Assembly: GCA_963528875.1 (NCBI GenBank) | Contig: CAURWT010000001.1 | Span: forward strand, 210,001 to 242,000 | Reading direction: 5' to 3' | Length of the DNA: 32,000 nt | Source of the DNA: an uncultured Candidatus Saccharimonas sp. | GTDB lineage: Bacteria > Patescibacteriota > Saccharimonadia > Saccharimonadales > Saccharimonadaceae | Shown: positions 3,370 to 32,000 of the stretch, piece after piece | How the letters are laid out: the number at the start of each line of letters is the position of its first letter | Numbering within the stretch: the stretch's first letter is position 1 | The notes under the pieces: model-generated | Seen by the model: the letters and a program-made list of their open reading frames with translations, nothing else | Databases searched by the model: none | Told to the model about the DNA's origin: nothing | Made by a program: the position numbers and the translations under genes

Positions 3370-4413
3370 TTATTTTACTAATTCAACTTTAAGCTTTTCA
3401 ATTAATTCTACAGGTGTTGGATCTACATTATTTAAGATAGCAAGATAAATACTAACAAAATCTGCTAGAATCGATCCCCAAAGCACTTGCTCGAGATAAG
3501 TTGAACCTTTTAGCTCAATATTTCGTGCTGCTGGGCGTTTTCCGCTTAAAAGCCTATCTGATATCTCAAATCGTTTTTGAACGCGTGGATGGTCAAAATT
3601 GCTGCGTAGATTAAATATTGCGAAAAGTTTTTCGACTGGGTGTGAGCTCCAACCGATAAATTCATTATGATTAAATTCCGGATATTCATTAAAGAAGCTA
3701 ATATTCTTAGCATTTTCATTCCAAGAAATTTTCCATTTATAAGCTAGCGGTGAAAATTCACTCGAACTCAAAAATACTGCACTTCGCCCTGCTGAATAAA
3801 GCGCTAATTGTTTGGCATAATTCCGCTCATTCGAAACACTTGCTGCCCAAGATTCGCTTTCTTTTCGCAAAAAATCGGCGTAATGTTCAATTTCTTCGTG
3901 TTTTTCATTCGAAATAATCCCAAAATTTACCAAAATTTTAGTTAAAGCTCTAAAATTATAAACTACCGCCATTCGAGGTTGAAGACCTGTTGGTAATTTA
4001 ACATGAGCAATTTCATTTTTACGAGCAATTTCTTCCATCTTTCCGTGCGAAGAAACTGTGGCAACTTGTGCGCCAATTTCAATTGCTTGATTTAATGCTG
4101 AAATTGACTCTTCTGTATTTCCAGAATACGAGCTTGCGATCACTAAAGTATTTTTCGAAACACTTTTTGGTAAATTATAATTTCGAATAATTTCGATTGG
4201 CAAAGTTATCTCATTTTCGAGCCATTTTTTCACAATTAAACCAGCTAAAGCTGAGCCACCCATTCCTGTAATAACAATATTTTTGATTTCACGGCCATCA
4301 TTTTCTGGTGAAATAACTTCAGCTTGAAAAAGCGCCTGTTTCCACTGCTCGCTAGCGACTAAAAGCGCATTTTGCGGGTCGCGCTGAACCAATAAATTAA
4401 AATCATCTAACAT
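3370..4413 (-). CDS. bifunctional phosphoglucose/phosphomannose isomerase (SIS-domain PGI/PMI family)
   Basis: SIS-domain motifs GMGGSALAG and SSYSGNTEE. Length of 347 aa is typical of the small PGI/PMI family. SD AAGGGTGG lies upstream of the ATG. Confidence 0.8.
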   Translation of the reverse strand: MLDDFNLLVQRDPQNALLVASEQWKQALFQAEVISPENDGREIKNIVITGMGGSALAGLIVKKWLENEITLPIEIIRNYNLPKSVSKNTLVIASSYSGNTEESISALNQAIEIGAQVATVSSHGKMEEIARKNEIAHVKLPTGLQPRMAVVYNFRALTKILVNFGIISNEKHEEIEHYADFLRKESESWAASVSNERNYAKQLALYSAGRSAVFLSSSEFSPLAYKWKISWNENAKNISFFNEYPEFNHNEFIGWSSHPVEKLFAIFNLRSNFDHPRVQKRFEISDRLLSGKRPAARNIELKGSTYLEQVLWGSILADFVSIYLAILNNVDPTPVELIEKLKVELVK

Positions 4414-4511
4414 TTTCCACCCTTTCGAAAAAAATAATCTTGATTATGCTTTAATTCTATGATACAATATAACTAATAAAAAGTAAAGTCAATTAAATAT
4501 AAAGGTGGGTT

Positions 4512-4973
4512 ATGGAAATTGATATGAACCAAACAAGTAAAATGCCAGTTAGCGACGATCCAGAGCTCGCTAAGATTCTTTCTGGTGTTAGCGGTTCTTC
4601 AGATGATTCTGATGATAATCAAAGCACTGATGAACTCCAATATGAAGATTTAAACCAAGTTGAGGTTCCAGTTACTGAAGAAGTTCAACCAGTTGTTGAA
4701 CAAACTCAGTCAACTGTAATGCCAAGTTTTGGTGGTTTAGATTTAGATACAATTAAAGGTCATGCTCTTGAAGATTTACGACCATTAGTTGATAAATTAA
4801 CAGTTTCGAATGAAGAAAAATTTGATATTTATCTTTTACTTCTCCGCTCAAGTGATGATAATACTTTAATTGAACCAGCTTATAATGCTGCTCGAATGAT
4901 TGAAGATGAGACAAAGCGTGCAAACGCGCTTCTCGATGTGATTAAAGAGATTGATTACTTTAAATCAAAATAA
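4512..4973 (+). CDS. acidic hypothetical protein
   Basis: 153-aa ORF with a D/E/S-rich N-terminal half. AAAGGTGGG lies upstream and a strong terminator follows. No domain recognised. Confidence 0.6.
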   Translation: MEIDMNQTSKMPVSDDPELAKILSGVSGSSDDSDDNQSTDELQYEDLNQVEVPVTEEVQPVVEQTQSTVMPSFGGLDLDTIKGHALEDLRPLVDKLTVSNEEKFDIYLLLLRSSDDNTLIEPAYNAARMIEDETKRANALLDVIKEIDYFKSK

Positions 4974-4979
4974 TTATAA

Positions 4980-5020
4980 AAACTGCGATAGATTTTAAAC
5001 TATCGCAGTTTTTATATTTT
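4980..5020 (+). terminator. Rho-independent terminator
   Basis: A 12-bp perfect stem, AAACTGCGATAG (4980-4991) / CTATCGCAGTTT (5000-5011), runs into TTTTTATATTTT. Confidence 0.75.
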
Positions 5021-5114
5021 CTGAAATCTTAAATTGAACTCAGGATTTTATAAAAATACCTAGAAATCAATAAAAATAGACCCTAAGTTCAGAGCCTATT
5101 TTTCTTTTTCGAAA

Positions 5115-7538
5115 TTAGATTTTTTTCGAATTTTTCTTTAATTTTTTAGCAAAGAATACAATTATTGGTGTGAAAATTGCAGCGACTAAACTAATCAAAA
5201 CTAATATAGTAGTGTTGTCTTGTTGGTTTTGTTTTTCGCGTAAATATCCAGTTTCTGGAGAATTTAAGCGTTGCTTTGCAATTTCCTCATTGCGTTTTTT
5301 AATAGCTTCTGCAAGCTTATCTGCTTCAATTTGAGATTCTTTTTGCTTGATAGAATTTTTAATTTCTTGCAATTTTTCGCTTAATTCTTGGCGTTTTTTC
5401 TCATCTTTAACTTTCGAAATTAAATTCTCAATATTTTCGATATCAACAGCCGGAAGCTCATTTTTCTTCGTTTTGTTATCTTCAACGATTTTTTCAACTT
5501 CTTTTAGTTTATCTTCAGATGATTTTTGGCGCTCGCTTTCTGCTTTTTTAGCTTTTTCGATAGCCGACTTCAATTCATCTTCCGCTTTTTTAATTTCTTC
5601 GAAAGTTGGATTATCTGCTTTTTGAACTTCTTTAGCTTTATCGGCTTCAGTTTTAACTTCATCTTTCAGCCATTTTTGTGAGTCTTCGAAATATTTAATT
5701 TGTGAATTTAGGGCTGTTTTATCAGCTCGCAAACCATTCAAAGCGCTTTCAAGTTCATTGATTGCTTCTAAGATTTCACTCTCTGAGGCAAGGTTTTCGG
5801 TTGAATTTTTTATCGCCTCGGCAGTTTTAAGTTGGCTTGAAATATTTAAGTTTGACGCCGCATTTACAACTTCTTGCAACTGTGCTAAAGTTTCCTTAGA
5901 AAAATTATTAAGATTTTTTAAATTAGCAATTTTGTCTAAAGTTTGTTCCAACTTTTTGGTATTTTTATTATAGCGTTCAGCAATTTTCTCTAACTCTTTA
6001 AGATTTGCTTGTTTCGCTACAGGGTCAAGAATCTTATCATTTTCATTCATGACATCCTTAAAATCGGCGATATATTCAATCACTTTCTTTAATTCGTTGA
6101 TCGCGTTTGAAATATCAGTTTTACGCTCATTTTCTAGAGCTACGATTTCAGCAATTTTATTATTTAAAGAATCTGCTGCATTTTTAACGTCATCGTTGGT
6201 TATTCCTAAAGGTTGTGTTGCAGTACGTTTAACCTCAGTTAATAAATTAGCAGGGATTGCATTTTTAATATAATCTGGCTGTTTTTCGAAATTTTCAAGA
6301 GCTTTTTTAGCTGGCTCACGAGAAGCGAAAGTAGTCAAAAGCCTAAATTGAGCGGTCGTGGTATTTCCATATTTATTTGTAGCCTTAGCTGTAATCAAAT
6401 AATCGCCATTTATTTGGTTTTCTTTATTGCTGAATACCTCTTCGGCATCAGTTGTGAAAGAAGTAATATATGATGTTGGGCTAGTTGCTGTAAAGAAATT
6501 TCCGCCAGCTTGGGGGCTATAATTCTTCTTAAAAGATTCTATTATAGCATCATTAATTGTAGAATTATTTTGTCTTGGCTTGTCCCAAACTAATGGCGAG
6601 CCTTCTTTCAATGGAATACTGTTACCCTGAATATTGAAATTAATTTCTGGTTTTTCGTTTAAGTTAAAGTTTATATTTTCTACTGTTACATTAGACGTAT
6701 TATAGTCATCACTTTGATTATCTATAGCATTTCCATTAGGTAGAGTATATTTTTTATTTATAACGCTAAAAGTATCTGTGCCTGTAAATTTATCTAAGTT
6801 AACCTTAATATATCCACCATCTTGTTGTGGATTTCCATTTTTATCTGTATTTATAAAAGTTTGATTATTTTCTATTGGCATAATCGTGCCATCAAAGTTA
6901 ATAAAAGGATTTTTAAAAATTCTTTGGCCTGCTGAAAGATTTATCGTTACATTTTCGCTTGCAATTCCATAAACTTTTGCTTTCGGCAAATCTTTAAGTG
7001 GCGAAAAATCTGTTGCTTTAGTATGGTGAATCCATAGCAACTCAACCTTTTTCCAGTTTTTAACATATGAAATATCGCTAACGCTGTTCATTCCAACATA
7101 AGCTGTCTCTATATTCTGGAGACCCGCTGCAGCAGACATGTCCTTTAACGACCAGATTGTATGAACATGAATTAATTTTAAGTTTGTGAAATACTGAATA
7201 CCTTCCATATTCTCAAAATTTCGATACGCATCTTCTGGCCAAAACTCTGTCATTGTTTTAGCTACACCAGCTGTAATTGGACTATCCAGTGTTCGGCTTG
7301 GATCACTTTTCATTAAAACCGAATTTAATGCACGCTTAAAATTCACATCTGTAAATTTAATTTCATAACTATCCGGAGCATTGCTTGGATCAACGGGGTT
7401 CACCGCTGAAGTATAAGCTGATGCTTTCGAAAAAATATTTTGTTTGCTGACAATTTGTGTTCCATAGTACCCACCACCGAGTGCTAGAACCGCTACCGTC
7501 ATTGCTGGTAATAAAATTCTATTATTCTTTACTTTCAT
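5115..7538 (-). CDS. large surface protein: signal/anchor, leucine-rich repeats, long coiled coil, LPXTG-like C-terminal sorting signal
   Basis: N-terminal hydrophobic LLPAMTVAVLALGG. Internalin-like LRR segment at about aa 95-200. K/E-rich heptad region at about aa 400-760. The C-terminus is SPETG, 13 polar aa, a 21-aa hydrophobic segment, then KKLKKNSKKI. SD AAGGAAAG lies upstream. Confidence 0.8.
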   Translation of the reverse strand: MKVKNNRILLPAMTVAVLALGGGYYGTQIVSKQNIFSKASAYTSAVNPVDPSNAPDSYEIKFTDVNFKRALNSVLMKSDPSRTLDSPITAGVAKTMTEFWPEDAYRNFENMEGIQYFTNLKLIHVHTIWSLKDMSAAAGLQNIETAYVGMNSVSDISYVKNWKKVELLWIHHTKATDFSPLKDLPKAKVYGIASENVTINLSAGQRIFKNPFINFDGTIMPIENNQTFINTDKNGNPQQDGGYIKVNLDKFTGTDTFSVINKKYTLPNGNAIDNQSDDYNTSNVTVENINFNLNEKPEINFNIQGNSIPLKEGSPLVWDKPRQNNSTINDAIIESFKKNYSPQAGGNFFTATSPTSYITSFTTDAEEVFSNKENQINGDYLITAKATNKYGNTTTAQFRLLTTFASREPAKKALENFEKQPDYIKNAIPANLLTEVKRTATQPLGITNDDVKNAADSLNNKIAEIVALENERKTDISNAINELKKVIEYIADFKDVMNENDKILDPVAKQANLKELEKIAERYNKNTKKLEQTLDKIANLKNLNNFSKETLAQLQEVVNAASNLNISSQLKTAEAIKNSTENLASESEILEAINELESALNGLRADKTALNSQIKYFEDSQKWLKDEVKTEADKAKEVQKADNPTFEEIKKAEDELKSAIEKAKKAESERQKSSEDKLKEVEKIVEDNKTKKNELPAVDIENIENLISKVKDEKKRQELSEKLQEIKNSIKQKESQIEADKLAEAIKKRNEEIAKQRLNSPETGYLREKQNQQDNTTILVLISLVAAIFTPIIVFFAKKLKKNSKKI

Positions 7539-7586
7539 TTAATCTTTCCTTGAATATATTTATGCTTATTCTATTTTACTAAATAT

Positions 7587-7615
7587 TTGCAAAAAAATCA
7601 ATAGTGTGCTAAAAT
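7587..7615 (+). promoter_or_regulatory. sigma70-type promoter (TTGCAA-17-TGcTAAAAT)
   Basis: -35 TTGCAA at 7587-7592, 17-nt spacer, extended -10 TGcTAAAAT ending at 7615. It is followed by a short leader with SD GGGGTGG. Confidence 0.55.
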
Positions 7616-7645
7616 TTAAATACTTTTCGAAAAGGGGTGGAAGAA

Positions 7646-7981
7646 ATGAAAAAAGTACATTTGCACAGGTTCGGTAAAACTGATATATTTTTTTCGATAG
7701 CTGTTACTCTGTCTACTGAAAGAGTTAAAGAGCCTGAAAAATCCTATTTGCTTAAAGATCAGTCTAATTTTAGGGAATTAATCCTTGAGATTGAGACTAA
7801 AGAGCCAACTGGGATCTTTCAAAAAAGGAATTTCTTTTTTGGATTAGATGAAGAAAATCTTGAAGAAGCTAAATTTGCATTTCATAATAATGAAATTGCA
7901 AATTGGTATATTCGAAGAATTAAATCTTCAGATGTTAACTTCAGCTCGTTCATCGATCGGTTAGATAGCCAAACCATTTAA
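7646..7981 (+). CDS. hypothetical protein
   Basis: The ORF-track frame 7637..7981 begins with GTG. ATG at 7646 sits 5 nt after GGGGTGG and is the more likely start. No domain recognised. Confidence 0.55.
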   Translation: MKKVHLHRFGKTDIFFSIAVTLSTERVKEPEKSYLLKDQSNFRELILEIETKEPTGIFQKRNFFFGLDEENLEEAKFAFHNNEIANWYIRRIKSSDVNFSSFIDRLDSQTI

Positions 7982-7987
7982 ATTTAA

Positions 7988-8018
7988 GCCGTTCGAAAGA
8001 ACGGTTTTTATTTTTTTT
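7988..8018 (+). terminator. Rho-independent terminator with GAAA tetraloop
   Basis: CCGTTC-GAAA-GAACGG (7989-8004) is followed by TTTTTATTTTTTTT. The stem-loop itself contains a TTCGAA copy. Confidence 0.6.
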
Positions 8019-8026
8019 CGAAAACT

Positions 8027-8052
8027 AAAATCGCCCGAAAATGAGCGATTTT
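8027..8052 (-). terminator. candidate terminator of murE
   Basis: AAAATCGC (8027-8034) pairs with GCGATTTT (8045-8052), starting 4 nt after the murE stop. The A/T-rich stem ends supply the U-tract. Confidence 0.4.
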
Positions 8053-8055
8053 TTG

Positions 8056-9366
8056 CTATTTTTTGAAGATTTCTTTTGTGATTTTTTGCACAATCTCTGT
8101 GTCATTCCAAGGTGTTTTTTTGCCATCAATTACGCGGTAAACTTCATGTCCTAAACCTGTAATTAACACAATATCGCCCTTGCCTGCAATTTGTAAAGCT
8201 TTTCGAATTGCTTCTTCACGATCTGGAATTTCTTGAATATTTGCTGGCAATTTTTCACCTTTTTTCGAAATTCCCGCAATAATTTCTTCACGAATTTGCT
8301 TAGCATCTTCAGTGTAGTTTTCTTCATCGGTAATAATAATTCGGTTAGCTAAATCTTGAGCGATTTTTCCCATAATTGGGCGTTTTTCACGATCGCGGTC
8401 GCCGCAAGCACCAAAAACTAAAATCGTGCGCTCTTTAGTGATTTTTTTTGAAGCTTTAAGGAGTTTTTCAAGCGCGTCTGGTGTGTGAGCGTAGTCTACA
8501 ACCACGTCAAAAGGTAAATTCGAAACAGCATATTCAAACCTTCCTGAAACTCCTTCAAGATTAGCGATTCCCTCTTGAATATCTTCGAGCGAAATTCCCA
8601 AAAGATAAGCGCCGGCCGCCGCCGCAGTCATGTTGTAAACATTAAATTCGCCTGGTAGATTTGTGGCGATTTCAAGTGTAACGTTATTATCAATTCGTAA
8701 ATTAGCTTCGCTTCCTTTTTTGTAAAGTTTGAAATTTTCAATTTTGACTTCTGCAGAATCACTTTCGCCATAAGTTATTTTTTGCTCGCCAGCTTCAAAT
8801 TTATTGAAAAATTCGAAATAAGCGTCATCAGTATTTAAAACAATAAATCGTGGTTGCATTTCGAAAAGTTTTGCTTTAGCGTTAGCGTAGTTTTCCATTG
8901 TTTTATGATAATCAAGATGATCTTGCGTAAGATTGGTCATAATTGCCATCTCAATAGGAACTCCAGCAAATTTGTATTGATCAAGCGCGTGCGAAGTTGC
9001 CTCAATTAACGCAAATTCAACACCAGCTTTTTTTGCATCAGAGAAAAATTTTTGTAATTTCGAAACTGTTGCGGTTGTAGAATTGGTGTCATTCACTGTT
9101 TGAATACCCGCAATCTCAATATTTGCGGTTGAAAACATCGCAGTTTTATATCCAGCTTCTTTTAAGATTTCATTAAGAAAATTAACAGTGGTGGTTTTAC
9201 CGTTCGTACCTGTTACAGCAATCACTCGCAAGTCGCGCGCGGGGTTGCCATAACGCGTGGCAATAACTTTTGCACGAGATTTTCGATAAGTTTTTTCCAG
9301 CCCAACAAGCGCCGATTTTGGCAAGACTTTGCGAGCAGTTTTTGTTAAATTATTCTTAATGCTCAT
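8056..9366 (-). CDS. murE: UDP-N-acetylmuramoyl-L-alanyl-D-glutamate--diamino acid ligase (MurE-type Mur ligase), short form
   Basis: P-loop VTGTNGKTTT, then IEATSHAL, TNLTQDHLDYH and GACGDRDREKRPIMG. At 436 aa it has a reduced N-terminal domain. The position of the DNPR (meso-DAP) motif reads DEEN. Confidence 0.8.
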   Translation of the reverse strand: MSIKNNLTKTARKVLPKSALVGLEKTYRKSRAKVIATRYGNPARDLRVIAVTGTNGKTTTVNFLNEILKEAGYKTAMFSTANIEIAGIQTVNDTNSTTATVSKLQKFFSDAKKAGVEFALIEATSHALDQYKFAGVPIEMAIMTNLTQDHLDYHKTMENYANAKAKLFEMQPRFIVLNTDDAYFEFFNKFEAGEQKITYGESDSAEVKIENFKLYKKGSEANLRIDNNVTLEIATNLPGEFNVYNMTAAAAGAYLLGISLEDIQEGIANLEGVSGRFEYAVSNLPFDVVVDYAHTPDALEKLLKASKKITKERTILVFGACGDRDREKRPIMGKIAQDLANRIIITDEENYTEDAKQIREEIIAGISKKGEKLPANIQEIPDREEAIRKALQIAGKGDIVLITGLGHEVYRVIDGKKTPWNDTEIVQKITKEIFKK

Positions 9367-10022: not shown

Positions 10023-10051
10023 TTGAAAATTTCGAAAAAATAAAGTAAAAT
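10023..10051 (+). promoter_or_regulatory. tRNA-Ser promoter (TTGAAA-17-TAAAAT)
   Basis: -35 at 10023-10028 and -10 at 10046-10051. The mature tRNA 5' end lies 9 nt downstream. The spacer contains TTTCGAAA (10030-10037). Confidence 0.6.
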
Positions 10052-10059
10052 ATTTTTAT

Positions 10060-10147
10060 GGAGAGATGGCCGAGTGGTTTAAGGCGCACGCCTGGAACGC
10101 GTGTTGGGCGCAAGCTCTCGCAGGTTCGAATCCTGTTCTCTCCGCCA
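10060..10147 (+). tRNA. tRNA-Ser (anticodon GGA)
   Basis: Acceptor GGAGAGA pairs with TCTCTCC. Anticodon stem CACGC/GCGTG has loop CTGGAAC. It has a long variable arm, T-loop GGTTCGAATCC, and an encoded CCA. Confidence 0.92.
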
Positions 10148-10415: not shown

Positions 10416-11720
10416 ATGAAAACTAAACTTGTAATCTTTGGCTTAACTGGCGATTTAGGGCGCCGCAAGCTTTTGCCTGCACTCGATTCTCTGCTTGAAA
10501 AAAATGAGATTTCTCCAGATGATCTTGAAGTTATTGGCGTTTCTCGGCGGCAAATTCAGCCTTTCGAAATTCTTGAAAGTTCGCTCGGTCTTTCGCGCGC
10601 TGAAAATTCTAAACTTTCGCAAATTTTAAGTTTTTTCGAAATGAATTTAGCGGATGAAACAGAATACAAAAAGCTTAAAAAATACCTTCAAGATGAAAAT
10701 GAAGAATTACAAATTTTGTTGTATCTTTCAGTTCCGCCAGCAAGTGCTGCACAGATTTCAACATTAGCTGGAAAAGCTGGTTTAAATGGTAAAAATGTTA
10801 AAATTCTTTTCGAAAAACCTTTCGGAATTGATCTAAAATCGGCGCAAGAATTTATTTCTCGAACATCGGAATTTTTTAGTGAAAAGCAGATTTTTCGAAT
10901 CGACCATTATTTAGCAAAAGAGATGGCGCAAAATTTACTAATTTTGCGGCACAAAAACGCATTATTTTCGCAAATTTGGAGCGGAAAATCCATTTCGAAA
11001 GTGCAAATTATCGCCAGCGAACAGATTGGAATTGAAGGTCGCGGCACTTTTTATGAACAAAGTGGCGCTTTGCGTGATTTTATTCAAAGTCATTTAATTC
11101 AGATTTTAGCATTATTTTTGGCAGATTTTCCAAAGAGTTGGAACGATTTACCTGAAGCTCGCTTTAAAGCATTAGAACAGATTGAAAAATTACAAAATCC
11201 TGAAGAAAATGCAATTCGTGGCCAATATCAAACTTATCGTGAAGAAGTTGAAAATCCAAAATCTTGCGTTGAAACTTTTGCAAAAATTCGACTATTTTCG
11301 AAAGATGAAAATTGGAAAAATGTGCCTTTCGAACTAATTTCTGGCAAAAACTTGAGCAAAAAACGCAGCGAAATTTGCATTCATTTGCGCAAAACTGAAG
11401 AAAAACAAGCCAATTTAATTCAGATTTCGCTTGATGATTCGGCGAGCGTGAAAATTGAACTTGCAACGAAAATTCCAGGTTTGAATCGTCGCACAGAAAT
11501 TCGAAATTTGAGCTTTTCTTATGATGAAAATGCTCAGCCTGCCGAAGCTTATGAAAAAGTTTTGGCTGAAGCGATTCGGAATGAAAAAGCGTTTTTTGCC
11601 GAGAGCGATGAAATTTTGCGTGCGTGGGAAATTCTTCAGCCCGCTTTGGATTTTTGGCAAAATTCGAACGAAGAAACTTTGCGATTTTATAAAAAAGGAA
11701 CAGATTGGAGCGAAATTTAA
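10416..11720 (+). CDS. zwf: glucose-6-phosphate 1-dehydrogenase
   Basis: NADP-binding FGLTGDLGRRKLLPAL and active-site RIDHYLAKE motifs. SD AAAGAGG lies upstream. Confidence 0.88.
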   Translation: MKTKLVIFGLTGDLGRRKLLPALDSLLEKNEISPDDLEVIGVSRRQIQPFEILESSLGLSRAENSKLSQILSFFEMNLADETEYKKLKKYLQDENEELQILLYLSVPPASAAQISTLAGKAGLNGKNVKILFEKPFGIDLKSAQEFISRTSEFFSEKQIFRIDHYLAKEMAQNLLILRHKNALFSQIWSGKSISKVQIIASEQIGIEGRGTFYEQSGALRDFIQSHLIQILALFLADFPKSWNDLPEARFKALEQIEKLQNPEENAIRGQYQTYREEVENPKSCVETFAKIRLFSKDENWKNVPFELISGKNLSKKRSEICIHLRKTEEKQANLIQISLDDSASVKIELATKIPGLNRRTEIRNLSFSYDENAQPAEAYEKVLAEAIRNEKAFFAESDEILRAWEILQPALDFWQNSNEETLRFYKKGTDWSEI

Positions 11721-12563: not shown

Positions 12564-12728
12564 TTATCTTCTCCGCGTTTAAAGCCCGCCCGGCTATTAT
12601 TTTTTTCGAAGTTTTCAGCTTCGAAAGCTAAGTTTAATTTTTAAACTCAATTTTCGAAACTGAAAATTCGGAAAAGCTAGCCAGATTCCTACTTTCGAAA
12701 TGTTCTCTCGCTCTACACAAGCCTTTAG

Positions 12729-16073: not shown

Positions 16074-16541
16074 TTAAACATTTGTTGGAGGAATACCGTT
16101 AGCTCCGTTTGAGCCACTGCCGAAACCAGTTCCGGCTCCTCCTAAGAATAAGCTAATAATGAAGTTGATGATCGCATAAGAAAGCATTGCGATAATTAAG
16201 CCAATGATCGCATAAAGAATTGTATTTTTTGCAGCATCAACCTTTTTCGAATCACCGTTTGATAGTATATATCGTAAACCGCCATAAATCAACATTATAA
16301 CGCTTAAAATTCCAACTGCAAAAAGCATCATATTCACCATCTGGGTGAAAATTCCAGTGTTGCCTTCACCAAAAAGTTGAGTTGGAACACCTTCGCCACG
16401 GCCTTTATCAGCTCCGCCTTGAACGCCACCGCTAAATATTCCACCGGTTGCAAAAGCATTTAATGCCAAGAAAGTTGCAGGAAATGTAGAAGATACAAAA
16501 CCGCTGATTGAGATTTTCGAAACTTGTTTAAAATTCTTCAT
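16074..16541 (-). CDS. TrbC/VirB2-like type IV secretion pilin-family protein
   Basis: It has a signal peptide (…ALNAFA). Two hydrophobic helices are separated by a short charged loop (GGLRYILSNGDSKKVDAAKNTILYAIIGL), the layout typical of the VirB2-like pilins abundant in CPR genomes. The C-terminal tail is glycine-rich. Confidence 0.65.
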   Translation of the reverse strand: MKNFKQVSKISISGFVSSTFPATFLALNAFATGGIFSGGVQGGADKGRGEGVPTQLFGEGNTGIFTQMVNMMLFAVGILSVIMLIYGGLRYILSNGDSKKVDAAKNTILYAIIGLIIAMLSYAIINFIISLFLGGAGTGFGSGSNGANGIPPTNV

Positions 16542-16715: not shown

Positions 16716-16723
16716 GAGAAAAT

Positions 16724-16750
16724 AGTTCGCAATAGCGGACTTTTTTCTTT
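16724..16750 (+). terminator. terminator after tRNA-Ser
   Basis: AGTTCGC-AATA-GCGGACT (one G-U pair) is followed by TTTTTTCTTT. Confidence 0.6.
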
Positions 16751-16771
16751 CAAAAAAATGTAAATTTGATG

Positions 16772-18007
16772 TTATTGAGTATTATCAATCTCATTTTCAA
16801 TATCTGATTTAGCTTTTTGATATTTATCCATTTCTTGGTTACTAATTAGGCCATGCGCGTGCAAGAAAGATGAGAGTTCGGCTGATTTTAATAGCGAATA
16901 ATATTGCATATTTTGTATTTTTTCAAAACATGTATTATTTTCTCGATTATGTCCTTTTTGAGATAGTCTTGATATGACTTTATCAATTTTTTTAGCGATA
17001 TTCATATAATATTCTCGTAAGTTTTCAGTATTTTTTCTGTCTTCTGGTGACTTGAAATATCCTTTGTCTCGGATATCCTTAATAAAACCACTTACAAGCG
17101 GTTCTCGCTCAACGATATTCATTGATAGCGATGCGTATTTCGATAAATTGCCATCTAATTGACCCCAAGTTGGGTCTACATTAGTGATGGCGGTTCCATC
17201 ATGAGTAAAGGTTATGAATTGGTTATATTTATGACCTACAGCAGATTTAGACTTGAAGGGGTTTACGGCATCCCACGGGGATTCACCAACAATTTCTCGA
17301 CAATAGGTGTTGGCAAGGCGAGTTGTTTCTGGATTTTGAACTTTTTTGAGTGCCGTAAAAATGATTTTAGTCATATCGGCATAATTCCTACAAACACCAA
17401 GTGGCGAATCCCCTTCTTTCGATAGGTGCTTCATTATTTCTAAAGTTGACATTCTGTCGGCTTTTCTATGACTGTCAGATACTTCGGAGTTATCATAATT
17501 CTTTAATTTCATAACTATATTCGTACTCAAAAGCATGGCTTGTCGAGGTGATAGCTCTTTCAGATCATTAATATCTTTAATTTCTGATAAATCCATAAGG
17601 TTTTTGTCTGAAGCGCATAATTTTGCTGAAAAATTGGCAACTGCTAAAACAGAATCTCTAGAAATTGAGTTTTGGTATGTTTCTGAGGAGCTGTTGTTGA
17701 ATTTTTCAATCCTATCTTCAGAATAGTCTTTTATTCTCCCTGATAAGATTGTATTTGCGGGTGAATTTTTATAAGCTTCCTTGTGAGCCTCTATTATTGC
17801 CGTATCGGAACGCTCGCCAGGAGTGACCTGCGGGTTAAAATTACTCCTGTTAAAAAATCCATATCTTATGCCATTGTTGAATAGTTCAAGACTTGGCTTA
17901 CTACCAAAGTTGCTAACCTCAATAGATTTATCATTTTCTTGAGAATTATTTTTTGGATTGTCTTCTGCTGACTGAGAAGTTGAGTTTAGATTATTGAAAT
18001 TTTTCAT
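16772..18007 (-). CDS. transglutaminase-like (papain-fold Cys-His-Asp) domain protein, no signal peptide
   Basis: The triad is GVC(206)RNYA...GH(259)KYNQF...VD(278)PTW, which matches the transglutaminase-core pattern G-x-C-x-x-[FY]-A ... H ... D-P-T. The N-terminus is polar and low-complexity. Confidence 0.6.
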   Translation of the reverse strand: MKNFNNLNSTSQSAEDNPKNNSQENDKSIEVSNFGSKPSLELFNNGIRYGFFNRSNFNPQVTPGERSDTAIIEAHKEAYKNSPANTILSGRIKDYSEDRIEKFNNSSSETYQNSISRDSVLAVANFSAKLCASDKNLMDLSEIKDINDLKELSPRQAMLLSTNIVMKLKNYDNSEVSDSHRKADRMSTLEIMKHLSKEGDSPLGVCRNYADMTKIIFTALKKVQNPETTRLANTYCREIVGESPWDAVNPFKSKSAVGHKYNQFITFTHDGTAITNVDPTWGQLDGNLSKYASLSMNIVEREPLVSGFIKDIRDKGYFKSPEDRKNTENLREYYMNIAKKIDKVISRLSQKGHNRENNTCFEKIQNMQYYSLLKSAELSSFLHAHGLISNQEMDKYQKAKSDIENEIDNTQ

Positions 18008-18045
18008 TTTAATATTTTTTGTTTTAACTATTTAATGATAAATTT

Positions 18046-18074
18046 ATTATACTATATAATTGTTAAAAAGTCAA
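18046..18074 (-). promoter_or_regulatory. consensus promoter TTGACT-17-TATAAT for the transglutaminase-like gene
   Basis: The reverse complement of 18069-18074 is TTGACT and of 18046-18051 is TATAAT. The ~38-nt leader is A/T-only with no SD. Confidence 0.6.
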
Positions 18075-18114
18075 TATTATTGTTATGGTTTTTATAAGAA
18101 TATACTCCAAAACC

Positions 18115-18144
18115 AAAAGAGCTCTCATTTTCGAAAGCTCTTTT
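18115..18144 (-). terminator. pnp terminator
   Basis: AAAAGAGCT (18115-18123) pairs with AGCTCTTTT (18136-18144). The loop contains TTCGAA. It lies 7 nt after the pnp stop. Confidence 0.6.
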
Positions 18145-18150
18145 AAAATT

Positions 18151-25461: not shown

Positions 25462-25490
25462 TTGACCAAACTTGTAAAAAGTAGTAAAAT
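25462..25490 (+). promoter_or_regulatory. tsaD promoter, leaderless geometry (TTGACC-17-TAAAAT-7 nt-ATG)
   Basis: -35 lies at 25462-25467 and -10 at 25485-25490. The ATG is at 25498. TTTTCGAAAA sits immediately upstream of the -35. Confidence 0.6.
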
Positions 25491-25497
25491 AGTAGTT

Positions 25498-26586
25498 ATG
25501 AAAATCTTAGGAATTGAAAGCACTTGTGATGAAACTGCGGCAGCTGTGGTGGAGTTTGATGCAAATAGAATTTCGCGTGAAAGCTCACCAAAGCTAAAAC
25601 TGCTTTCAAGCGTAGTTCATTCACAAATTGATATTCATGCGCAATTTGGCGGGGTAATTCCAGAGGTGGCGGCGCGTTCGCATATTGAATATGCTAACCC
25701 TGTTGTGCGAGAAGCGCTTTCGAAAGCGGGAATTTCCTTTAAAGATTTGGATGGAATCGCTGTTTCTTATGCACCTGGTTTGGTGGGTTCGTTGTTAGTT
25801 GGTACGCTTACGGCGCAAACCTACGCTAGAATTTTTAATAAACCATTTTACCCAATTCATCATGTTGAAGCTCATGTTTATGCGAATTTTCTAAACGAGG
25901 AGCCACCAAAATTTCCATTTTTAGCATTAGTGGTTTCAGGCGGTCATTCACAAATTGTATTATTTAAATCACACGGAAATTACCAAATTTTAGGAGAAAC
26001 ACAAGATGATGCAGTTGGCGAAGCTTTCGATAAAGTTTCAAAAATCCTTGGCTTACCGTATCCTGGCGGCCCTGCAATTTCAAAAGCAGCGTTAAGTGGT
26101 AATTCTTCAAAATATAAATTGCCAAAAGCTCGCTTAAAAGGGAAGTATGATTTCAGTTTTTCGGGATTAAAAACAGCAGTTTTGCGTGCAGTTCAAAAAG
26201 AAGTTGGTGTTGATTTTAACTTTCCATCTTTTGAGTTGGCAGCAAAATTAAATGAACAACAGAAAAATGATTTCGCTGCAAGTTTTCAAAAAATAGCTGT
26301 TGAAACTCTGGTTGATAAACTTGAAAAAGCCGTTGAAGATTTTTCGCCAACAACTGTTGTGATTGCGGGCGGTGTAGCAGCGAATTCAGCTTTAAGAGAG
26401 GAATTAATTAAGAGAGTTTTGAAAAAACTGCCAAACCCTGTAATTTTCACTCCGCCAGAACTTTGCACCGATAATGCCGCAATGGTGGCAACTTTAGGTG
26501 CTTTTCAGGCCGTACTGAGCGAATCGCAAAATCCGCTTGAGCTTGAAGTTAAACCATCGCTTTCGATGAGCGATTTAAAATGGTAA
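25498..26586 (+). CDS. tsaD: tRNA N6-adenosine threonylcarbamoyltransferase
   Basis: Kae1/TsaD motifs GIESTCDETAAAV, metal-binding HVEAHV, SGGHS, and GGVAANSALR. Confidence 0.92.
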   Translation: MKILGIESTCDETAAAVVEFDANRISRESSPKLKLLSSVVHSQIDIHAQFGGVIPEVAARSHIEYANPVVREALSKAGISFKDLDGIAVSYAPGLVGSLLVGTLTAQTYARIFNKPFYPIHHVEAHVYANFLNEEPPKFPFLALVVSGGHSQIVLFKSHGNYQILGETQDDAVGEAFDKVSKILGLPYPGGPAISKAALSGNSSKYKLPKARLKGKYDFSFSGLKTAVLRAVQKEVGVDFNFPSFELAAKLNEQQKNDFAASFQKIAVETLVDKLEKAVEDFSPTTVVIAGGVAANSALREELIKRVLKKLPNPVIFTPPELCTDNAAMVATLGAFQAVLSESQNPLELEVKPSLSMSDLKW

Positions 26587-27118: not shown

Positions 27119-27138
27119 TTTTTGAAAAAAGTATCAAA

Positions 27139-27393
27139 TTAAGCAAGCTTTACGCCAGCTTTTTTTGCAGCAGCGGCAAGAGAAGCTTTTCGGCGAGCAG
27201 CTGTGTTTTTCTTGATAAGACCTTTTTTAACAGCTTTGTCTAATTCGCTTTGTGCTTTCGAAAGACTTTTTGCGCTTGGTTCAGCAACAAAAGCTTTAAC
27301 TGCGCCTTTGATATCTTTTTTAATTCCAACGTTGCGTTCGCGTCGTTTTGCGGTTTGTCGCATTCGCTTTACAGCAGATTTAATAATTGGCAT
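27139..27393 (-). CDS. rpsT: 30S ribosomal protein S20
   Basis: MPIIKSAVKRMRQTAKRRERN is a typical S20 N-terminus. SD GAAGGA lies upstream. Confidence 0.92.
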   Translation of the reverse strand: MPIIKSAVKRMRQTAKRRERNVGIKKDIKGAVKAFVAEPSAKSLSKAQSELDKAVKKGLIKKNTAARRKASLAAAAKKAGVKLA

Positions 27394-27480
27394 TTAATTC
27401 CTTCTTTTAGGTTGTTATTTACAATTCAACATCAATTATATATTATTTCGAAATAAAAAGCAAGTATTTCAAATAAACTG

Positions 27481-27509
27481 TTGACATTTCATTGCGATTA
27501 TGCTAATAT
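27481..27509 (+). promoter_or_regulatory. consensus promoter TTGACA-17-TAATAT
   Basis: -35 lies at 27481-27486 and -10 at 27504-27509. Confidence 0.6.
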
Positions 27510-27549
27510 AGAGCTATAAATTATAAAAATAAACAATAGGATTCAATAA

Positions 27550-29763
27550 ATGTCAAAAAATAATGCTCAAGAGCAGATTATCGCAAAATTGAAAGAATCA
27601 GAAAGCATTTTGATTGCGGTAAATGATAGCCCAAGCGTTGATGAACTTTCTTCAGCATTGGCTTTAACGCTCGCAATTAATAATTCTGGCAAGCATGCAA
27701 CGGCGGTTTCAAGCGGAAAAATGCCCGACGCGCTAGCTTTTTTGCGCCCAGAAAAAACTTTCGAAAATTCGGTAGATTCTTTGCGTGATTTTATTATTGC
27801 TTTAAATAAAGAGAAAGCTGATCATCTTCGTTATAAGCTTGTTGGTGATCATGTGAAAATTTTTATTACGCCATATCGCTCAATTATTTCTGAAAAAGAC
27901 CTCGAATTTGAACAGGGTGATTTTAACATTGATTTTGTGCTAGCTTTAAATGTTGAAAGCCAAGATCGCCTTGATGGGGCTTTAGCGGCGCACGGGCGAA
28001 TTTTTCACGATGCTTCAGTTGGAATTTTAACTGTTGGTGAAAACCAAACGAATCTTAACGGAACTCACTGGCATGCCGAAAACGCCAGTTCTTTGAGTGA
28101 AATTTCTGTTCAAATTATTGAATCCCTTGGAAAGAAAAATCTTACTCAACCAGTCGCAACTGCTCTTTTGACTGGAATTGTTGCTGAAACTGATCGCTTT
28201 TCGAATGCAAAAGCTACGGCTGAAGTTATGAGTCTTGCAGCAAAACTTATTTCATCTGGCGCTGACCAGCAACTTGTAGTTTCAAAAATCCGTGAAGCTG
28301 AAGAAAAAGCGGGCGAATTTGCTGTGCAAAAAAATGCTAAAATGGAAGAAGCTTTAGAAGAAATTTCGAACGAAAAAGAAAAATCGAGCGAAAAATCTTC
28401 TTCAAAGAAAGAGCAAAAGCGTAACGGTGCATTTGTGATTGCGCATGAAGAAGCTAAAAATGAAGCAGAAAAAGCTAATCTTGAAAATTCACAAAATCAA
28501 GCCGAAGACGAACTTGAAGAATCTTTAAATAAACTAAAAAATATTAATAAACCAGAAAATGCTTTTGCTAAACTTGAAGAAGTTGAAGCTCCTGAGCAAA
28601 ATCAAGAACTTGCGCAAGAAAATTCGAACGAAGATATTTTCGAAAATCCAAGCGAAAATCTTGAAAATACACAAGCTCAAAATGAAAATTTAGTTGAAGA
28701 AAATTCGGCACAAAATATATCAGAAAGCCAAGAAGATCTAGCTGAACAAAATATTTCAGTCCCAACTCCCGAAAACACTCAACCACAAACTTTCGAAACT
28801 ATCGAACCTCAAATTGCTCAACCAGAAGTTGCGCCAGTTTTCGAACAACAAAATCCAGCTGAAACTCCTGCCCCTTCAGAATTTAATCAGCCTGAAAATA
28901 CGCAAGGTTTGGTTGAAGCGCCAGTTCAAAATTATGCACCAGAAATCCCAACGCCAAGTGTGCCTTTCGAAAATCCAAATGCATTTATTGCGGAAACTCC
29001 AGTTCAGGAGCAAGTTTTTGAGCCAGCTCGCCAAGTTGATATTTCAGTCCCAACTCCCGAAAACACTCAACCACAAACTTTCGAAACTATCGAACCTCAA
29101 ATTGCTCAACCAGAAGTTGCGCCAGTTTTCGAACAACAAAATCCAGCTGAAACTCCTGCCCCTCAAGAGATTCAAACTCAAAATATTCAGCCAGTGCAAA
29201 ATCAGGGCGATGAATATTATCACCCAGCCGAAAATGCTCAAATTGCAAGTGGTTTGATGGGTGCTCAGCCTTATGAGCCAAGTGGAATTTCTCGTGGAGA
29301 AAACTCTGCAGCAACTTCAAATCCACAAAATAATGATTATGTTTTAAGCCATGGTAAAGTTCAAAATGCGGTTTATGAAGAATCGCAGGCGAATGAGAAT
29401 TTTATTCCTGAAACTCAGCCTTACGCTCAAGCTACACCAATCCAGCCACTTTCAAATTTTGAATCAAGTAATCCGATTTCGAATGAACAATATGCGCAGA
29501 CTTTGCCACAAAATAATTTTGAAAGTCAGCAAACTTACTCGACTGAAAATCCTGCACAAAATTCGAATGATTTTGCAATGCCAATGCCACCAGCTATGCC
29601 AGATTTTAGCTCGATGCCAATGCCGCCAGAAATTCCAGCTTTTGATTTTATTCCAAATCCAGCGGAGCAACCTGCAATGGGTGCTGAAAGTAGCAAAAAT
29701 AAAGTGATGACCGACCAAATTTACCCTAACGATCCTTCAGAATTCAGAATTCCAGGGATGTAA
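27550..29763 (+). CDS. DHH-fold (NrnA-like) domain protein with degenerate catalytic motifs, fused to a ~470-aa Q/P/E-rich low-complexity tail
   Basis: The first ~250 aa are colinear with NrnA-type DHH phosphoesterases, but DxD reads SPS, the motif II D reads N, DHH reads GEN, and GDTGRF reads AETDRF. No DHHA1 GGGH motif is present. The rest is low complexity with a 125-bp duplicated block. Confidence 0.75.
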   Translation: MSKNNAQEQIIAKLKESESILIAVNDSPSVDELSSALALTLAINNSGKHATAVSSGKMPDALAFLRPEKTFENSVDSLRDFIIALNKEKADHLRYKLVGDHVKIFITPYRSIISEKDLEFEQGDFNIDFVLALNVESQDRLDGALAAHGRIFHDASVGILTVGENQTNLNGTHWHAENASSLSEISVQIIESLGKKNLTQPVATALLTGIVAETDRFSNAKATAEVMSLAAKLISSGADQQLVVSKIREAEEKAGEFAVQKNAKMEEALEEISNEKEKSSEKSSSKKEQKRNGAFVIAHEEAKNEAEKANLENSQNQAEDELEESLNKLKNINKPENAFAKLEEVEAPEQNQELAQENSNEDIFENPSENLENTQAQNENLVEENSAQNISESQEDLAEQNISVPTPENTQPQTFETIEPQIAQPEVAPVFEQQNPAETPAPSEFNQPENTQGLVEAPVQNYAPEIPTPSVPFENPNAFIAETPVQEQVFEPARQVDISVPTPENTQPQTFETIEPQIAQPEVAPVFEQQNPAETPAPQEIQTQNIQPVQNQGDEYYHPAENAQIASGLMGAQPYEPSGISRGENSAATSNPQNNDYVLSHGKVQNAVYEESQANENFIPETQPYAQATPIQPLSNFESSNPISNEQYAQTLPQNNFESQQTYSTENPAQNSNDFAMPMPPAMPDFSSMPMPPEIPAFDFIPNPAEQPAMGAESSKNKVMTDQIYPNDPSEFRIPGM
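28751..28875 (+). repeat. 125-bp direct repeat, copy 1 (in-frame, inside CDS)
   Basis: It is identical base for base to 29039-29163 (checked by eye). It encodes ISVPTPENTQPQTFETIEPQIAQPEVAPVFEQQNPAETPAP. Confidence 0.9.
29039..29163 (+). repeat. 125-bp direct repeat, copy 2
   Basis: It is offset exactly 288 bp (96 codons) from copy 1. Confidence 0.9.
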
Positions 29764-29764
29764 A

Positions 29765-30445
29765 ATGGCATTTTTCGAAAACGATAGCGGGCGAATCTTA
29801 ATTGATAAGCCTGCCGGAATTACCAGCTTTGGTGTGGTCGCTAGAATACGCCGCGTTCTTAAAGATGAATTTGGTAAAAAAGTTAAAGTTGGCCACACTG
29901 GCACGCTCGATCCTTTTGCGACTGGGCTTTTAGTTTTACTTTATGGTAAGGAAACTAAAAATGCAATGAGCCTTACTAAGCTTGATAAAGTTTATGAGGC
30001 GGAATTTACACTTGGGCAAATTTCCAGTACGGGCGATCCTGAAGGCGAGATTTCTAAATGCGAGAATTTTGAAATCCCAACTTTTGAACAGATTGAAAAA
30101 GAAATTAAAACTAACTTTTTAGGCAAAATTGAACAAACTCCGCCAGCTTTTAGTGCAATAAAAATTGAGGGCAAGCGTGCCTATGATTTGGCGCGAAAAG
30201 GTGAGGATTTTGAAATTCCTAAACGCACGGTTGAAATTTTTGATTTCGAAATTTTAAGTTATGATTTTCCAAAATTAAAAGTTCGCACACATGTTTCAAG
30301 TGGAACTTACATTCGTTCGCTGGCAGAAGATTTGGGCAAAAATTTGGGTTGCGGTGCGTTTTGTTCGCAACTTCGGCGCACAAAAATTGCCGATTTTGAT
30401 ATTTCGAAAGCTAAAAAGCTTGAAGATTTTGGAATTTTAGATTAG
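29765..30445 (+). CDS. truB: tRNA pseudouridine(55) synthase, short form without PUA domain
   Basis: Catalytic motif GHTGTLDPFATGLL. The start lies 1 nt after the upstream stop (TAAAATG). Confidence 0.9.
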   Translation: MAFFENDSGRILIDKPAGITSFGVVARIRRVLKDEFGKKVKVGHTGTLDPFATGLLVLLYGKETKNAMSLTKLDKVYEAEFTLGQISSTGDPEGEISKCENFEIPTFEQIEKEIKTNFLGKIEQTPPAFSAIKIEGKRAYDLARKGEDFEIPKRTVEIFDFEILSYDFPKLKVRTHVSSGTYIRSLAEDLGKNLGCGAFCSQLRRTKIADFDISKAKKLEDFGILD

Positions 30446-30448
30446 TTT

Positions 30449-30477
30449 TTGCTTATACTGCCAAAAAATGATATAAT
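30449..30477 (+). promoter_or_regulatory. orn promoter, leaderless geometry (TTGCTT-17-TGaTATAAT-7 nt-ATG)
   Basis: -10 lies at 30472-30477 with an extended TG. The ATG is at 30485 and there is no SD. Confidence 0.55.
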
Positions 30478-30484
30478 TTAAATA

Positions 30485-31033
30485 ATGAAAAACGCAAAAA
30501 TTCTTTGGATTGATTTAGAAATGACCGGTCTTGAACCTGAAAAAGACCGAATTTTAGAAGTTGCGGCAATTGCGACAGATTGGGATTTTAATGAAATTGC
30601 CACTTTCGAAAGTGCAGTTAAGGTTGATGAGAAAATTCTCGAAATCCGAATGGTTGGTGATTTTTGGGATACTTTTAGCGAAACGCGTGATGCTTTAAAA
30701 TTGCAAAATTCTTGCGCTACAAAAAATTCACAAGAAGTTGAAGCGGATTTAATTAAATTTGTAGAAGAAAATTTTGCCGAAGAAATTTTGAAAGGCGAGA
30801 AAATTATTTTGGGTGGAAATTCAATTCACCAAGATCGCCGATTTATTCGTGAAGAATGGAAAAAACTTGAAAAAATGCTGCATTATCGAATGTTAGATGT
30901 TTCAGCGTGGAAAGTTGTGATGAGCGCTAAGTTTAAACGGGTGTTTGCTAAGCCTGAAAATCACCGCGCGCTGGATGATATTCGCGGTTCGATTGAAGAG
31001 TTGAAATTTTATTTAAAAAAGGTGAAAAAGTAA
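30485..31033 (+). CDS. orn: oligoribonuclease (DEDDh 3'-5' exonuclease)
   Basis: Motifs WIDLEMTGL, GNSIHQDRRFI, and H..LDDI. Length of 182 aa is typical of Orn. Confidence 0.88.
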   Translation: MKNAKILWIDLEMTGLEPEKDRILEVAAIATDWDFNEIATFESAVKVDEKILEIRMVGDFWDTFSETRDALKLQNSCATKNSQEVEADLIKFVEENFAEEILKGEKIILGGNSIHQDRRFIREEWKKLEKMLHYRMLDVSAWKVVMSAKFKRVFAKPENHRALDDIRGSIEELKFYLKKVKK

Positions 31034-31458
31034 TGGATCAAAGTGAAATTAAAGATTTTTTGCTGAATTTTTACGCAGCGGAAGTTCGAAAAGATGAAGA
31101 AAATAAACTTGAAATTTTTGAAGTTAATTTTGATAAATTAGAAAAAATTTGGCAAGAAAAAATGGCTGGCGAGCTTGGCGATTTTGAGCGTGAGACTGGT
31201 GAAAAGATTCTTTCGAAAATTGCAGAAAGTGAAGAGCCAAAAGCAATTTTTGCAATCATTCACGATGGTTCAAAACCTTTAAAAGTTGAAATGAAAACAG
31301 GCGTGCAGCTTGCTCGAATTTTGCGTGAAAAGGAGAGTGTAGTGCCTTCAAAGTTGATGAGCGAGCGTGAGTGGAATTTGATTATTGGCCAAGGACAAGT
31401 TTCGGCTGAAGAATTGCGAGATTTGTTTCGCTTGAGCTATCGCTTGGTTTGCGAGTAA
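31033..31458 (+). CDS. hypothetical protein (141 aa), translationally coupled to orn
   Basis: The ATG overlaps the orn stop (TAATG at 31031-31035). No domain recognised. Confidence 0.6.
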   Translation: MDQSEIKDFLLNFYAAEVRKDEENKLEIFEVNFDKLEKIWQEKMAGELGDFERETGEKILSKIAESEEPKAIFAIIHDGSKPLKVEMKTGVQLARILREKESVVPSKLMSEREWNLIIGQGQVSAEELRDLFRLSYRLVCE

Positions 31459-31557
31459 AATATATTTTGTAGTTTCTCTTTTAGATAGAAAATAACCTTG
31501 CAAAAGCGGGGTTTTTCTTTGCGAAAAAAACTTTTTTGTGATATAATCATAAGTAAT

Positions 31558-32000
31558 ATGAAACCGAATGAAGATTGGAATCAGGTCGGCCAAAATCAAA
31601 ATTTTGGTGCACCAAATAATTATCCTCAAAATCCTTATCCACCACAACAAAATTACGGTGGTTTTTCGAATAATTTTGCTCAAAATGGTCAATTCCCAAG
31701 TAATCAATTTCCGAATGGACAAAATCCACAGCAACAATTTGGCAGCCAAAATCAAAACTTTGGTGCACAACAGAATTTTCCGCAATATCCAAATAATTAC
31801 CGAAATCAACAACAATTTCCAGTTCAGCCAAATCAACCTGTTCAAAATTCGCAAGTTGCTCCAAATTTAATGCCAGATCAAAATTATTCGCAAGATACTA
31901 CAACTGAAAACCCTTACACAGTTGAGTATCTCAACAAGATTGCGCCCAAAAAAGCCGCTCCGTTTTGGACTAAAGGAAAAATTCTAGGTGCTTCAGCATT
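31558..32000 (+). CDS. Q/N/P-rich protein, N-terminal part (ORF continues past the right edge)
   Basis: Hand translation gives MKPNEDWNQVGQNQNFGAPNNYPQNPYPPQQNYGGFSNNFAQNGQFPSNQFPNGQNPQQQFGSQNQNFGAQQNFPQYPNNYRNQQQFPVQPNQP...TVEYLNKIAPKKAAPFWTKGKILGASA, with no stop before the window end. TGTGATATAAT lies 10 nt upstream. It is absent from the ORF track because it has no stop. Confidence 0.6.
   Translation, partial: MKPNEDWNQVGQNQNFGAPNNYPQNPYPPQQNYGGFSNNFAQNGQFPSNQFPNGQNPQQQFGSQNQNFGAQQNFPQYPNNYRNQQQFPVQPNQPVQNSQVAPNLMPDQNYSQDTTTENPYTVEYLNKIAPKKAAPFWTKGKILGASA

Follow-up and report, generated by a model that had tools for sequence, protein, structure and literature searches.

Known uptake sequences, among them the DNA uptake sequence (DUS) of Neisseria and the uptake signal sequence (USS) of the Pasteurellaceae, are asymmetric words of 9-12 nt that recur about once per kb and have a monomeric pilin as their receptor, while the Dam site GATC of Escherichia coli is a palindromic methylation site that recurs about once per 250 bp with a near-random spread. 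The highly iterated palindrome HIP1 (GCGATCGC) of cyanobacteria and its alternates (GGCGCC, GCsGC and rCCGGy) are short perfect palindromes found far above compositional expectation (PMC4390886, PMC5861425). HIP1 and the alternate palindromes are found together with cognate methyltransferases (PMC4390886), conservation has been seen at HIP1 sites (PMC5861425), and HIP1 is stated in one report to raise transformation in a way that depends on methylation (10.1101/2024.09.10.611283). Here we analyzed a 32,000-base stretch (35.9% G+C; hereafter the window) of a chromosome from the uncultured human-mouth Saccharibacteria clade G6, in which the palindrome TTCGAA occurs 113 times, with 52 counts of TTTCGAAA and 10 of TTTTCGAAAA.

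Like HIP1, TTCGAA is a short, perfectly palindromic word well in excess of what base composition predicts that is dispersed between genes as well as within them in all frames, belongs to neither a longer repeat nor a mobile element, is specific to one clade with copies conserved among related genomes, and extends partially, as a palindrome, past its core. The HIP1-like reading given in the first-pass annotation, an earlier description made from the letters of this DNA, is upheld under codon-aware nulls; the palindrome is the top word, dispersed, present in all frames and conserved between genomes. In contrast to HIP1, a G+C-rich 8-mer in 15-300-fold excess at 300-2700 copies per Mb, TTCGAA is an A+T-rich word of 6-8 letters with a smaller fold-excess (3-10-fold) and a higher absolute density (about 3500-4000 per Mb), its host is a 0.66-Mb episymbiont of a different phylum, and its methyltransferase is only predicted; we describe it as a new highly iterated palindrome. 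HIP1 is also distributed periodically on a scale of 10-90 kb, set against a window of 32 kb here. The likeness to GATC lies in palindromy, a frequency of about one per 250 bp and a near-random spread, but GATC is a 4-mer near chance frequency, whereas a 6-mer needs roughly 10-fold enrichment to reach equal density. Full-text literature searches yielded no earlier account of TTCGAA, whether for Saccharibacteria or for other organisms, and no gene list from which a methyltransferase might be picked out; the word is absent from the G6 genome papers.

The copies begin at position 3830 and follow one another at a mean gap of 248 bp, or about one per 250 bases; the absolute density is 3.5-4.5 per kb. 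Markov models of the window predict 10.9 copies at order 0, 24.2 at order 1, 39.0 at order 2, 59.2 at order 3 and 94.4 at the maximal order of 4; the excess is thus 10.4-fold, 4.7-fold and 2.9-fold over the first three nulls, and 3.2-4.7-fold over codon-aware nulls. The first-pass figures of about 110 copies, one per 250 bp and a 10-fold excess were accordingly close to the mark. The maximal-order ratio of 1.2, a check that the same annotation had proposed, is not a refutation because the sub-words themselves carry the signal, with 113 of the 138 TTCGA pentamers falling inside TTCGAA copies. Ranked by z-score, TTCGAA is first among the hexamers of the window and the sole strongly enriched palindromic one. 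Each step from 4 to 6 letters through the nested words adds 1.13-1.26-fold and the 7- and 8-mers add nothing, indicating a six-base cooperative core, because enrichment stops growing past six letters. T at -1 and A at +1 each accompany 69% of copies, compared with a background of ~42%, and contribute independently; both flanks together (TTTCGAAA) are present in 46% only, so that the earlier statement that most copies take this form was too strong, and no conserved sequence lies beyond +/-1. Spacing is Poisson-like (coefficient of variation 0.99), with no clustering, regular spacing or helical phasing detectable among the window copies. The phrase "saturating the chromosome", also used earlier, applies only to the ~55 kb of this genome type, and to the relatives, over which it was checked.

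The position of the copies relative to genes shows on which molecule the excess resides. Native coding sequences, 28 in all, hold 94 copies, distributed over codon phases 0, 1 and 2 as 33, 17 and 44, where a within-gene synonymous shuffle predicts 29.6 +/- 4.5 (maximum 41 in 300 shuffles; z = 14), codons redrawn from motif-free codon usage predict 19.8 +/- 4.0, and a codon-order shuffle predicts 19.2. Just over half of the synonymously possible positions are occupied (94/184, 51%), with 60%, 41% and 50% filled in phases 0, 1 and 2, respectively. The effect on codon choice is pronounced: serine is written TCG in 44 of 70 T|_|AA contexts but in only 24 of 258 elsewhere, arginine is written CGA in 17 of 24 TT|_|A contexts, and Phe-Glu is written TTC-GAA in 33 of 54 cases even though TTC is the minor phenylalanine codon. 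Most TCG, CGA and TTC codons in the relevant contexts are therefore owed to the motif. Intergenic DNA (3185 bases, 27% G+C) is still denser than coding DNA, with 17 copies compared with 1.0 (order 0) or 2.4 (order 1) expected. The excess is shown by these comparisons to be a property of double-stranded DNA, not of proteins. The first-pass annotation had claimed as much, in asserting a DNA-level effect instead of dipeptide bias, copies in all three phases (those quoted for zwf are correct) and between genes, and forced use of TCG and CGA, and each of these assertions holds under nulls that fix protein sequences and codon usage or in the counts just given.

The phenomenon is confined to one branch of the Saccharibacteria. 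The window's polynucleotide phosphorylase (PNPase) is 94-95% identical to those of Candidatus Nanogingivalaceae assemblies (clade G6, HMT-870-like), in agreement with the earlier guess of a Saccharibacteria episymbiont, and we compared the window with 80 Saccharibacteria loci around pnp (L001-L080). Enrichment recurs in the related genomes: in the window and the eight closest loci (L001-L008; DNA 84-95% identical), TTCGAA stands at 3.9-5.0 times its order-1 expectation, with 2.8-4.5 copies per kb. The status of the next relative, L009 (DNA 73% identical, 84% PNPase identity), is ambiguous, with 5.6-fold enrichment at order 0 and only 1.0-1.3-fold at orders 1-2. The other 71 loci (L010-L080; 36-57% G+C), one of which (L072) matches the G+C content of the window, have a median of 0.43-0.49 of the order-1/2 expectation, a mild avoidance that agrees with the first-pass remark that palindromes are usually shunned. 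As TTCGAA falls below expectation in the rest of the phylum, G6 has switched from avoidance to enrichment, and a test for restriction-site avoidance in G6 returns the opposite sign, an excess. TTCGAA ranks first or second among hexamers in all 7 G6 loci tested, its sub-word TCGAAA taking the other place, and no other palindrome figures among the top hexamers in the 72 Saccharibacteria loci tested that reach 12 kb. The density is sustained beyond the window: the next 10 kb on the right (L082-L087) carry 4.0 per kb, and on the left (L081) the copies return past a motif-free island. A scan of viral contigs for paired TTTCGAAA gave scattered matches and no long stretch at G6-like density, and is uninformative on phages of G6.

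Other palindromes are raised over order 0 elsewhere in the phylum, namely CAATTG in Nanosynbacter-like loci (4-5-fold, 30-35 copies per 22 kb; L014, L015, L019-L021 and L025-L028), GCCGGC (L057), CGATCG (L065) and CGCGCG (L036, L038, L041 and L009). The idea that each Saccharibacteria clade has its own enriched palindrome was nevertheless dropped, and with it a support for a methyltransferase, because none of these is a top word under the order-2 null.

TTCGAA is abundant in native genes and scarce in recently acquired DNA, for which the motif-free left end of the window serves as an internal control (Table 1). The island encodes an MmeI-family type IIL restriction-modification enzyme in whose gene 0 of 12 synonymous opportunities are filled, compared with 51% in native genes (P about 2e-4). 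The enzyme shares 88-90% identity with proteins from oral Streptococcus (Streptococcus australis, S. salivarius and S. parasuis), as well as with one encoded by a complete G6 genome, indicating recent transfer between phyla, and the exact protein is found on only 2 contigs. In L081 the corresponding desert (932-6185, 5.25 kb) spans the MmeI-family gene (1808-4396) and an adjacent 620-aa protein of unknown function. In the window the stop codon (NNIRE*RKQ) in the 941-aa frame leaves an 862-aa open reading frame (ORF) that starts at Met80 and may lack the N-terminal nuclease motif while retaining the methyltransferase. A second motif-free gene, encoding 411 aa, lies where alignments to L001-L005 and L007 break (16722-18150), is thus strain-variable, and was probably acquired. 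The tsaD gene (window 25462-26586; L001 ~600-1720; L082 4251-5339) is hypervariable among strains otherwise 92-95% identical; its alleles are only 67-84% identical, reach 46.6% G+C and are all TTCGAA-poor (0-3 copies), and in L082/L084 the gene is inverted and accompanied by two extra genes, which suggests repeated allele replacement from outside the clade. The lack of copies in the island and in the 411-aa gene is what a slow, lineage-wide force on resident DNA would be expected to leave.

Table 1. Coordinates of the TTCGAA copies and of associated features in the window
Feature	Position	Strand	Evidence or remark
TTCGAA field, 113 copies	3830..31670	.	word counts, Markov and codon-aware expectations
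TTCGAA starts, part 1	3830, 3908, 4154, 4182, 4424, 4805, 5108, 5125, 5413, 5598, 5685, 6285, 7426, 7626, 7911, 7992, 8017, 8202, 8264, 8519, 8812, 8860, 9059, 9465, 9869, 10031, 10125, 10180, 10563, 10635, 10809, 10894, 10994, 11297, 11328, 11500, 11663, 11824, 12110, 12510, 12605, 12620, 12653, 12694		
TTCGAA starts, part 2	13472, 13491, 13544, 13679, 13781, 13924, 14018, 14246, 14526, 14697, 14827, 14943, 15090, 15577, 15743, 16246, 16516, 16693, 18130, 19320, 19800, 20114, 20315, 20326, 20798, 21624, 21727, 21760, 21951, 22047, 22477, 22750, 23189, 23319, 23703, 23919, 24093, 24516, 24556, 24610, 24801, 24841, 24913		
TTCGAA starts, part 3	25306, 25359, 25454, 25719, 26799, 27257, 27447, 27760, 28200, 28365, 28623, 28639, 28792, 28840, 28966, 29080, 29128, 29478, 29562, 29774, 30245, 30403, 30605, 31085, 31212, 31665		
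Motif desert, internal control	1..3829	.	0 TTCGAA, ~12-15 expected at native density
MmeI-family type IIL restriction-modification gene	371-3196	-	frame interrupted by a stop at codon 15
Another motif-free gene (411 aa, without a Pfam family)	16772..18007	-	0/7 synonymous opportunities
zwf (glucose-6-phosphate dehydrogenase), motif-dense native gene	10416..11720	+	9 copies, 6.9 per kb, all three phases
Terminator-like hairpin, TTCGAA (7992) across stem and loop, then T run	7986..8007	+	-13.7 kcal/mol, z = -5.4
Terminator-like hairpin 3' of pnp, TTTCGAAA (18129) at stem-loop junction	18112..18146	-	-16.8 kcal/mol, z = -4.6
Copies 12605 and 12620, pairing mutually as a hairpin	12603..12627	+	folding
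Copy in the conserved GGTTCGAATCC T-arm of tRNA-Ser(GGA)	10125..10130	+	ordinary tRNA sequence
Copy in the GGTTCGAATCC T-arm of tRNA-Ser(GCT)	16693		ordinary tRNA sequence

Individual copies are also better conserved between strains than background. Window copies are kept at 59% in L007 and 83% in L001, compared with 38% and 66% for hexamers generally. Where the amino acid is conserved, codons within the motif are retained more often than the same codons elsewhere: 94% compared with 68% for TCG among close relatives and 77% compared with 55% among distant ones, 87% compared with 67% for TTC, 100% compared with 95% for GAA, and, in distant relatives, 95% compared with 73% for CGA. Synonymous change, as observed over expected, is 0.27-0.53 at the central CG, 0.21-0.56 at motif positions 1/6, 0.2-1.1 at positions 2/5 and 0.6-0.7 in the flanks. 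The reduction thus reaches past the CpG, most clearly to positions 1/6, which argues against repair acting on the CpG alone. The commonest orthologous variants at lost sites are TTTGAA and TTCAAA. Third-position CpG transitions are ~3-fold rarer inside the motif (3/134) than at other CpGs (38/579), making cytosine-5 methylation without repair unlikely. Polarised spectra from the window, six close relatives and two outgroups comprise 512 singleton substitutions, with 10 losses and 0 gains among 44 ancestral neighbours, and are underpowered. Two further observations concern CpG in general: third-codon-position CpG is undepleted in the window from 3370 to 32000 (observed/expected 1.19-1.23), in DNA of 36% G+C, and third-position CpGs outside the motif show more terminal-branch transitions than other C/G sites (38/579 compared with 59/2128).

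The perfect palindromy of the word speaks for a symmetric reader that recognizes double-stranded DNA. The reading that we tentatively favor, and whose prospects we judge to be close to even, takes TTCGAA, with TTTCGAAA as its best form, for a highly iterated palindrome specific to the Nanogingivalaceae lineage; such a reader, most likely a methyltransferase, would recognize it, and each site would confer a weak benefit or transmission bias. The reader would be sequence-specific, present in G6 and lacking in other Saccharibacteria and, by analogy with HIP1 and its alternates, would most likely be a TTCGAA-specific DNA methyltransferase, either an orphan or a restriction-modification partner. 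Methylation of the form TTCGA(m6A) does occur in nature, the motif having been found in a genome from a metagenome (10.64898/2026.06.24.734251). A weak advantage or transmission bias for marked DNA, by our own estimate roughly e^1.5 to e^2.3 per site, would drive the word towards saturation in long-resident DNA and leave new imports without TTCGAA until ameliorated; candidate advantages are self-marking for protection, choice of strand in repair, and recombination or transformation.

Several points weigh against this proposal. No TTCGAA methyltransferase, restriction enzyme or other reader was found within ~55 kb of this genome type, and a Pfam scan of 20 window proteins returned no DNA methyltransferase, nuclease or obvious DNA-binding candidate (the MmeI-family gene, 371-2959, was identified separately). 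The only DNA methyltransferase in view is that MmeI-family enzyme, inside the motif-free foreign island, and members of the family recognize asymmetric sites. The 3-10-fold enrichment is well under that of HIP1, and the Poisson-like spacing lacks the regularity that a role in strand discrimination might favor. With respect to conservation, related genomes enter the pooled tests more than once, tests on single genomes are only marginal at the outer motif positions (P = 0.04-0.14), the control codons were drawn from all genes and not matched within a gene, and synonymous-site conservation cannot tell selection from biased transmission.

The alternative that survives best, though we think it unlikely, is that TTTCGAAA is an uptake or self-recognition tag, in which a receptor or recombination filter preferring this word would let it build up through uptake-biased gene conversion (molecular drive), as has been suggested for the uptake sequences of Neisseria and the Pasteurellaceae. 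Saccharibacteria take up DNA, and a tag would favor own-species over host DNA. TTCGAA resembles DUS and USS in being a hyper-abundant short word of a lineage able to take up DNA that lies within genes in every frame, like coding-region uptake sequences (PMC2817400), and sometimes in terminators, is rare in acquired DNA and abundant in core genes, and is specific to a clade in the manner of uptake-sequence dialects. The protection of the outer positions in addition to the CG would also be consistent with a tag, and HIP1 itself has been proposed as an uptake signal (10.64898/2026.06.24.733823). Several small pilin-type genes of the T4SS_pilin family (PF18895) lie in or near the window (16074-16541, and L081 11298-13121) and may bear on DNA transfer or uptake. 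In contrast to the asymmetric, roughly once-per-kb uptake sequences, however, TTCGAA is a perfect palindrome of 6-8 bp with independent flanks at 3.5-4 per kb, which suits a dimeric or methyltransferase-type reader better. A related and similarly doubtful proposition is that TTTCGAAA is a self-DNA mark of this ultrasmall epibiont, either methylated or directly recognized, at a Dam-like density.

Less probable still is that the copies form an array of binding sites for an abundant, clade-specific nucleoid-associated protein or global regulator, acting as a symmetric dimer and kept for chromosome organization, a role that has been proposed for HIP1 (PMC5861425). Palindromy, the reduced change at the outer positions as well as at the CG, and the higher intergenic density are compatible with such sites, and the intergenic copies at 10031, 10180 and 13924 lie directly downstream of -35-like boxes (TTGAAA/TTGACT), within the spacers of promoters predicted for tRNA-Ser, tRNA-Leu and the ABC transporter operon. 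On the other hand, the copies are randomly spaced, neither clustering nor helical phasing being detectable; the motif fills half of its coding opportunities, far beyond the need of any known regulon; and no candidate protein emerged.

Neutral biased repair alone, in which a TTCGAA cytosine-5 methyltransferase and Vsr-like T:G patch repair turn TTTGAA and TTCAAA into TTCGAA as Dcm and Vsr do for CCWGG in E. coli, appears very improbable. It shares with the CCWGG signature a palindrome raised above expectation by a DNA-level process, and both the identity of the commonest lost-site variants and the rarity of CpG transitions inside the motif are in its favor. The neighbor depletion that it predicts is not seen, however, as TTTGAA/TTCAAA, at an order-1 observed/expected of 0.83, is the least depleted of nine neighbor classes (others 0.43-0.78); positions 1/6 and 2/5, which lie outside the protection of T:G repair at the cytosine, also show reduced change; and the excess is much larger than the effects of Vsr. 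For these reasons the purely repair-driven version of the hypothesis offered in the first-pass annotation is disfavored. Finally, a side effect of constraints on proteins or their translation (F-E, S-K/N or codon-pair preference), or an RNA-level motif, can hardly be the explanation, since the numerous phase 0 (TTC-GAA, F-E) and phase 2 (x-Ser-Lys/Asn) copies that might suggest one are set against an excess that survives nulls fixing protein and codon usage, a similar filling of all phases (41-60%), a maximum in intergenic DNA, and the lack of any reason for an RNA motif to be a perfect palindrome.

A few copies have particular settings. Some lie in terminator-like hairpins (Table 1), as the first-pass annotation had said of terminator loops, and the mutual pairing of the copies at 12605 and 12620 arises because TTCGAA is self-complementary. 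The two copies in tRNA-Ser T-arms are no part of the phenomenon. Within the gene of a 737-aa Pro/Gln/Glu-rich protein without a Pfam family (27550-29763), a 130-nt direct repeat (28751-28880 and 29039-29168; 98% identity at a distance of 288 nt) has doubled a stretch of 43 residues together with two TTCGAA copies, and origin by duplication accounts for only 2 copies.

HIP1, known chiefly from cyanobacteria, has defied explanation for about thirty years; TTCGAA provides an independent, A+T-rich test case, and a simpler one, in an unrelated phylum and a 0.66-Mb genome with few DNA-handling genes. A candidate reader should be findable as a gene that tracks the motif-rich clade. Complete G6 genomes and raw nanopore reads exist (PMC8354532), and the reads of JB001 (SRX10387815; genome CP072208) and of JB002 and JB003 (CP076101, CP076102) could reveal the methylation state of TTCGAA. 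The motif could also serve as a binning and strain-tracking signature for G6 in oral metagenomes, and is a built-in marker that separates native from recently imported DNA, here exposing a transfer from Streptococcus to Saccharibacteria. If TTCGAA is indeed a self-DNA mark, it would be the first sequence of the uptake or self-recognition kind in the candidate phyla radiation and would give the HIP1 problem a second, simple system; with it, a naturally competent, DNA-scavenging cell could tell the DNA of its own species from the flood of host DNA in uptake, recombination or repair.

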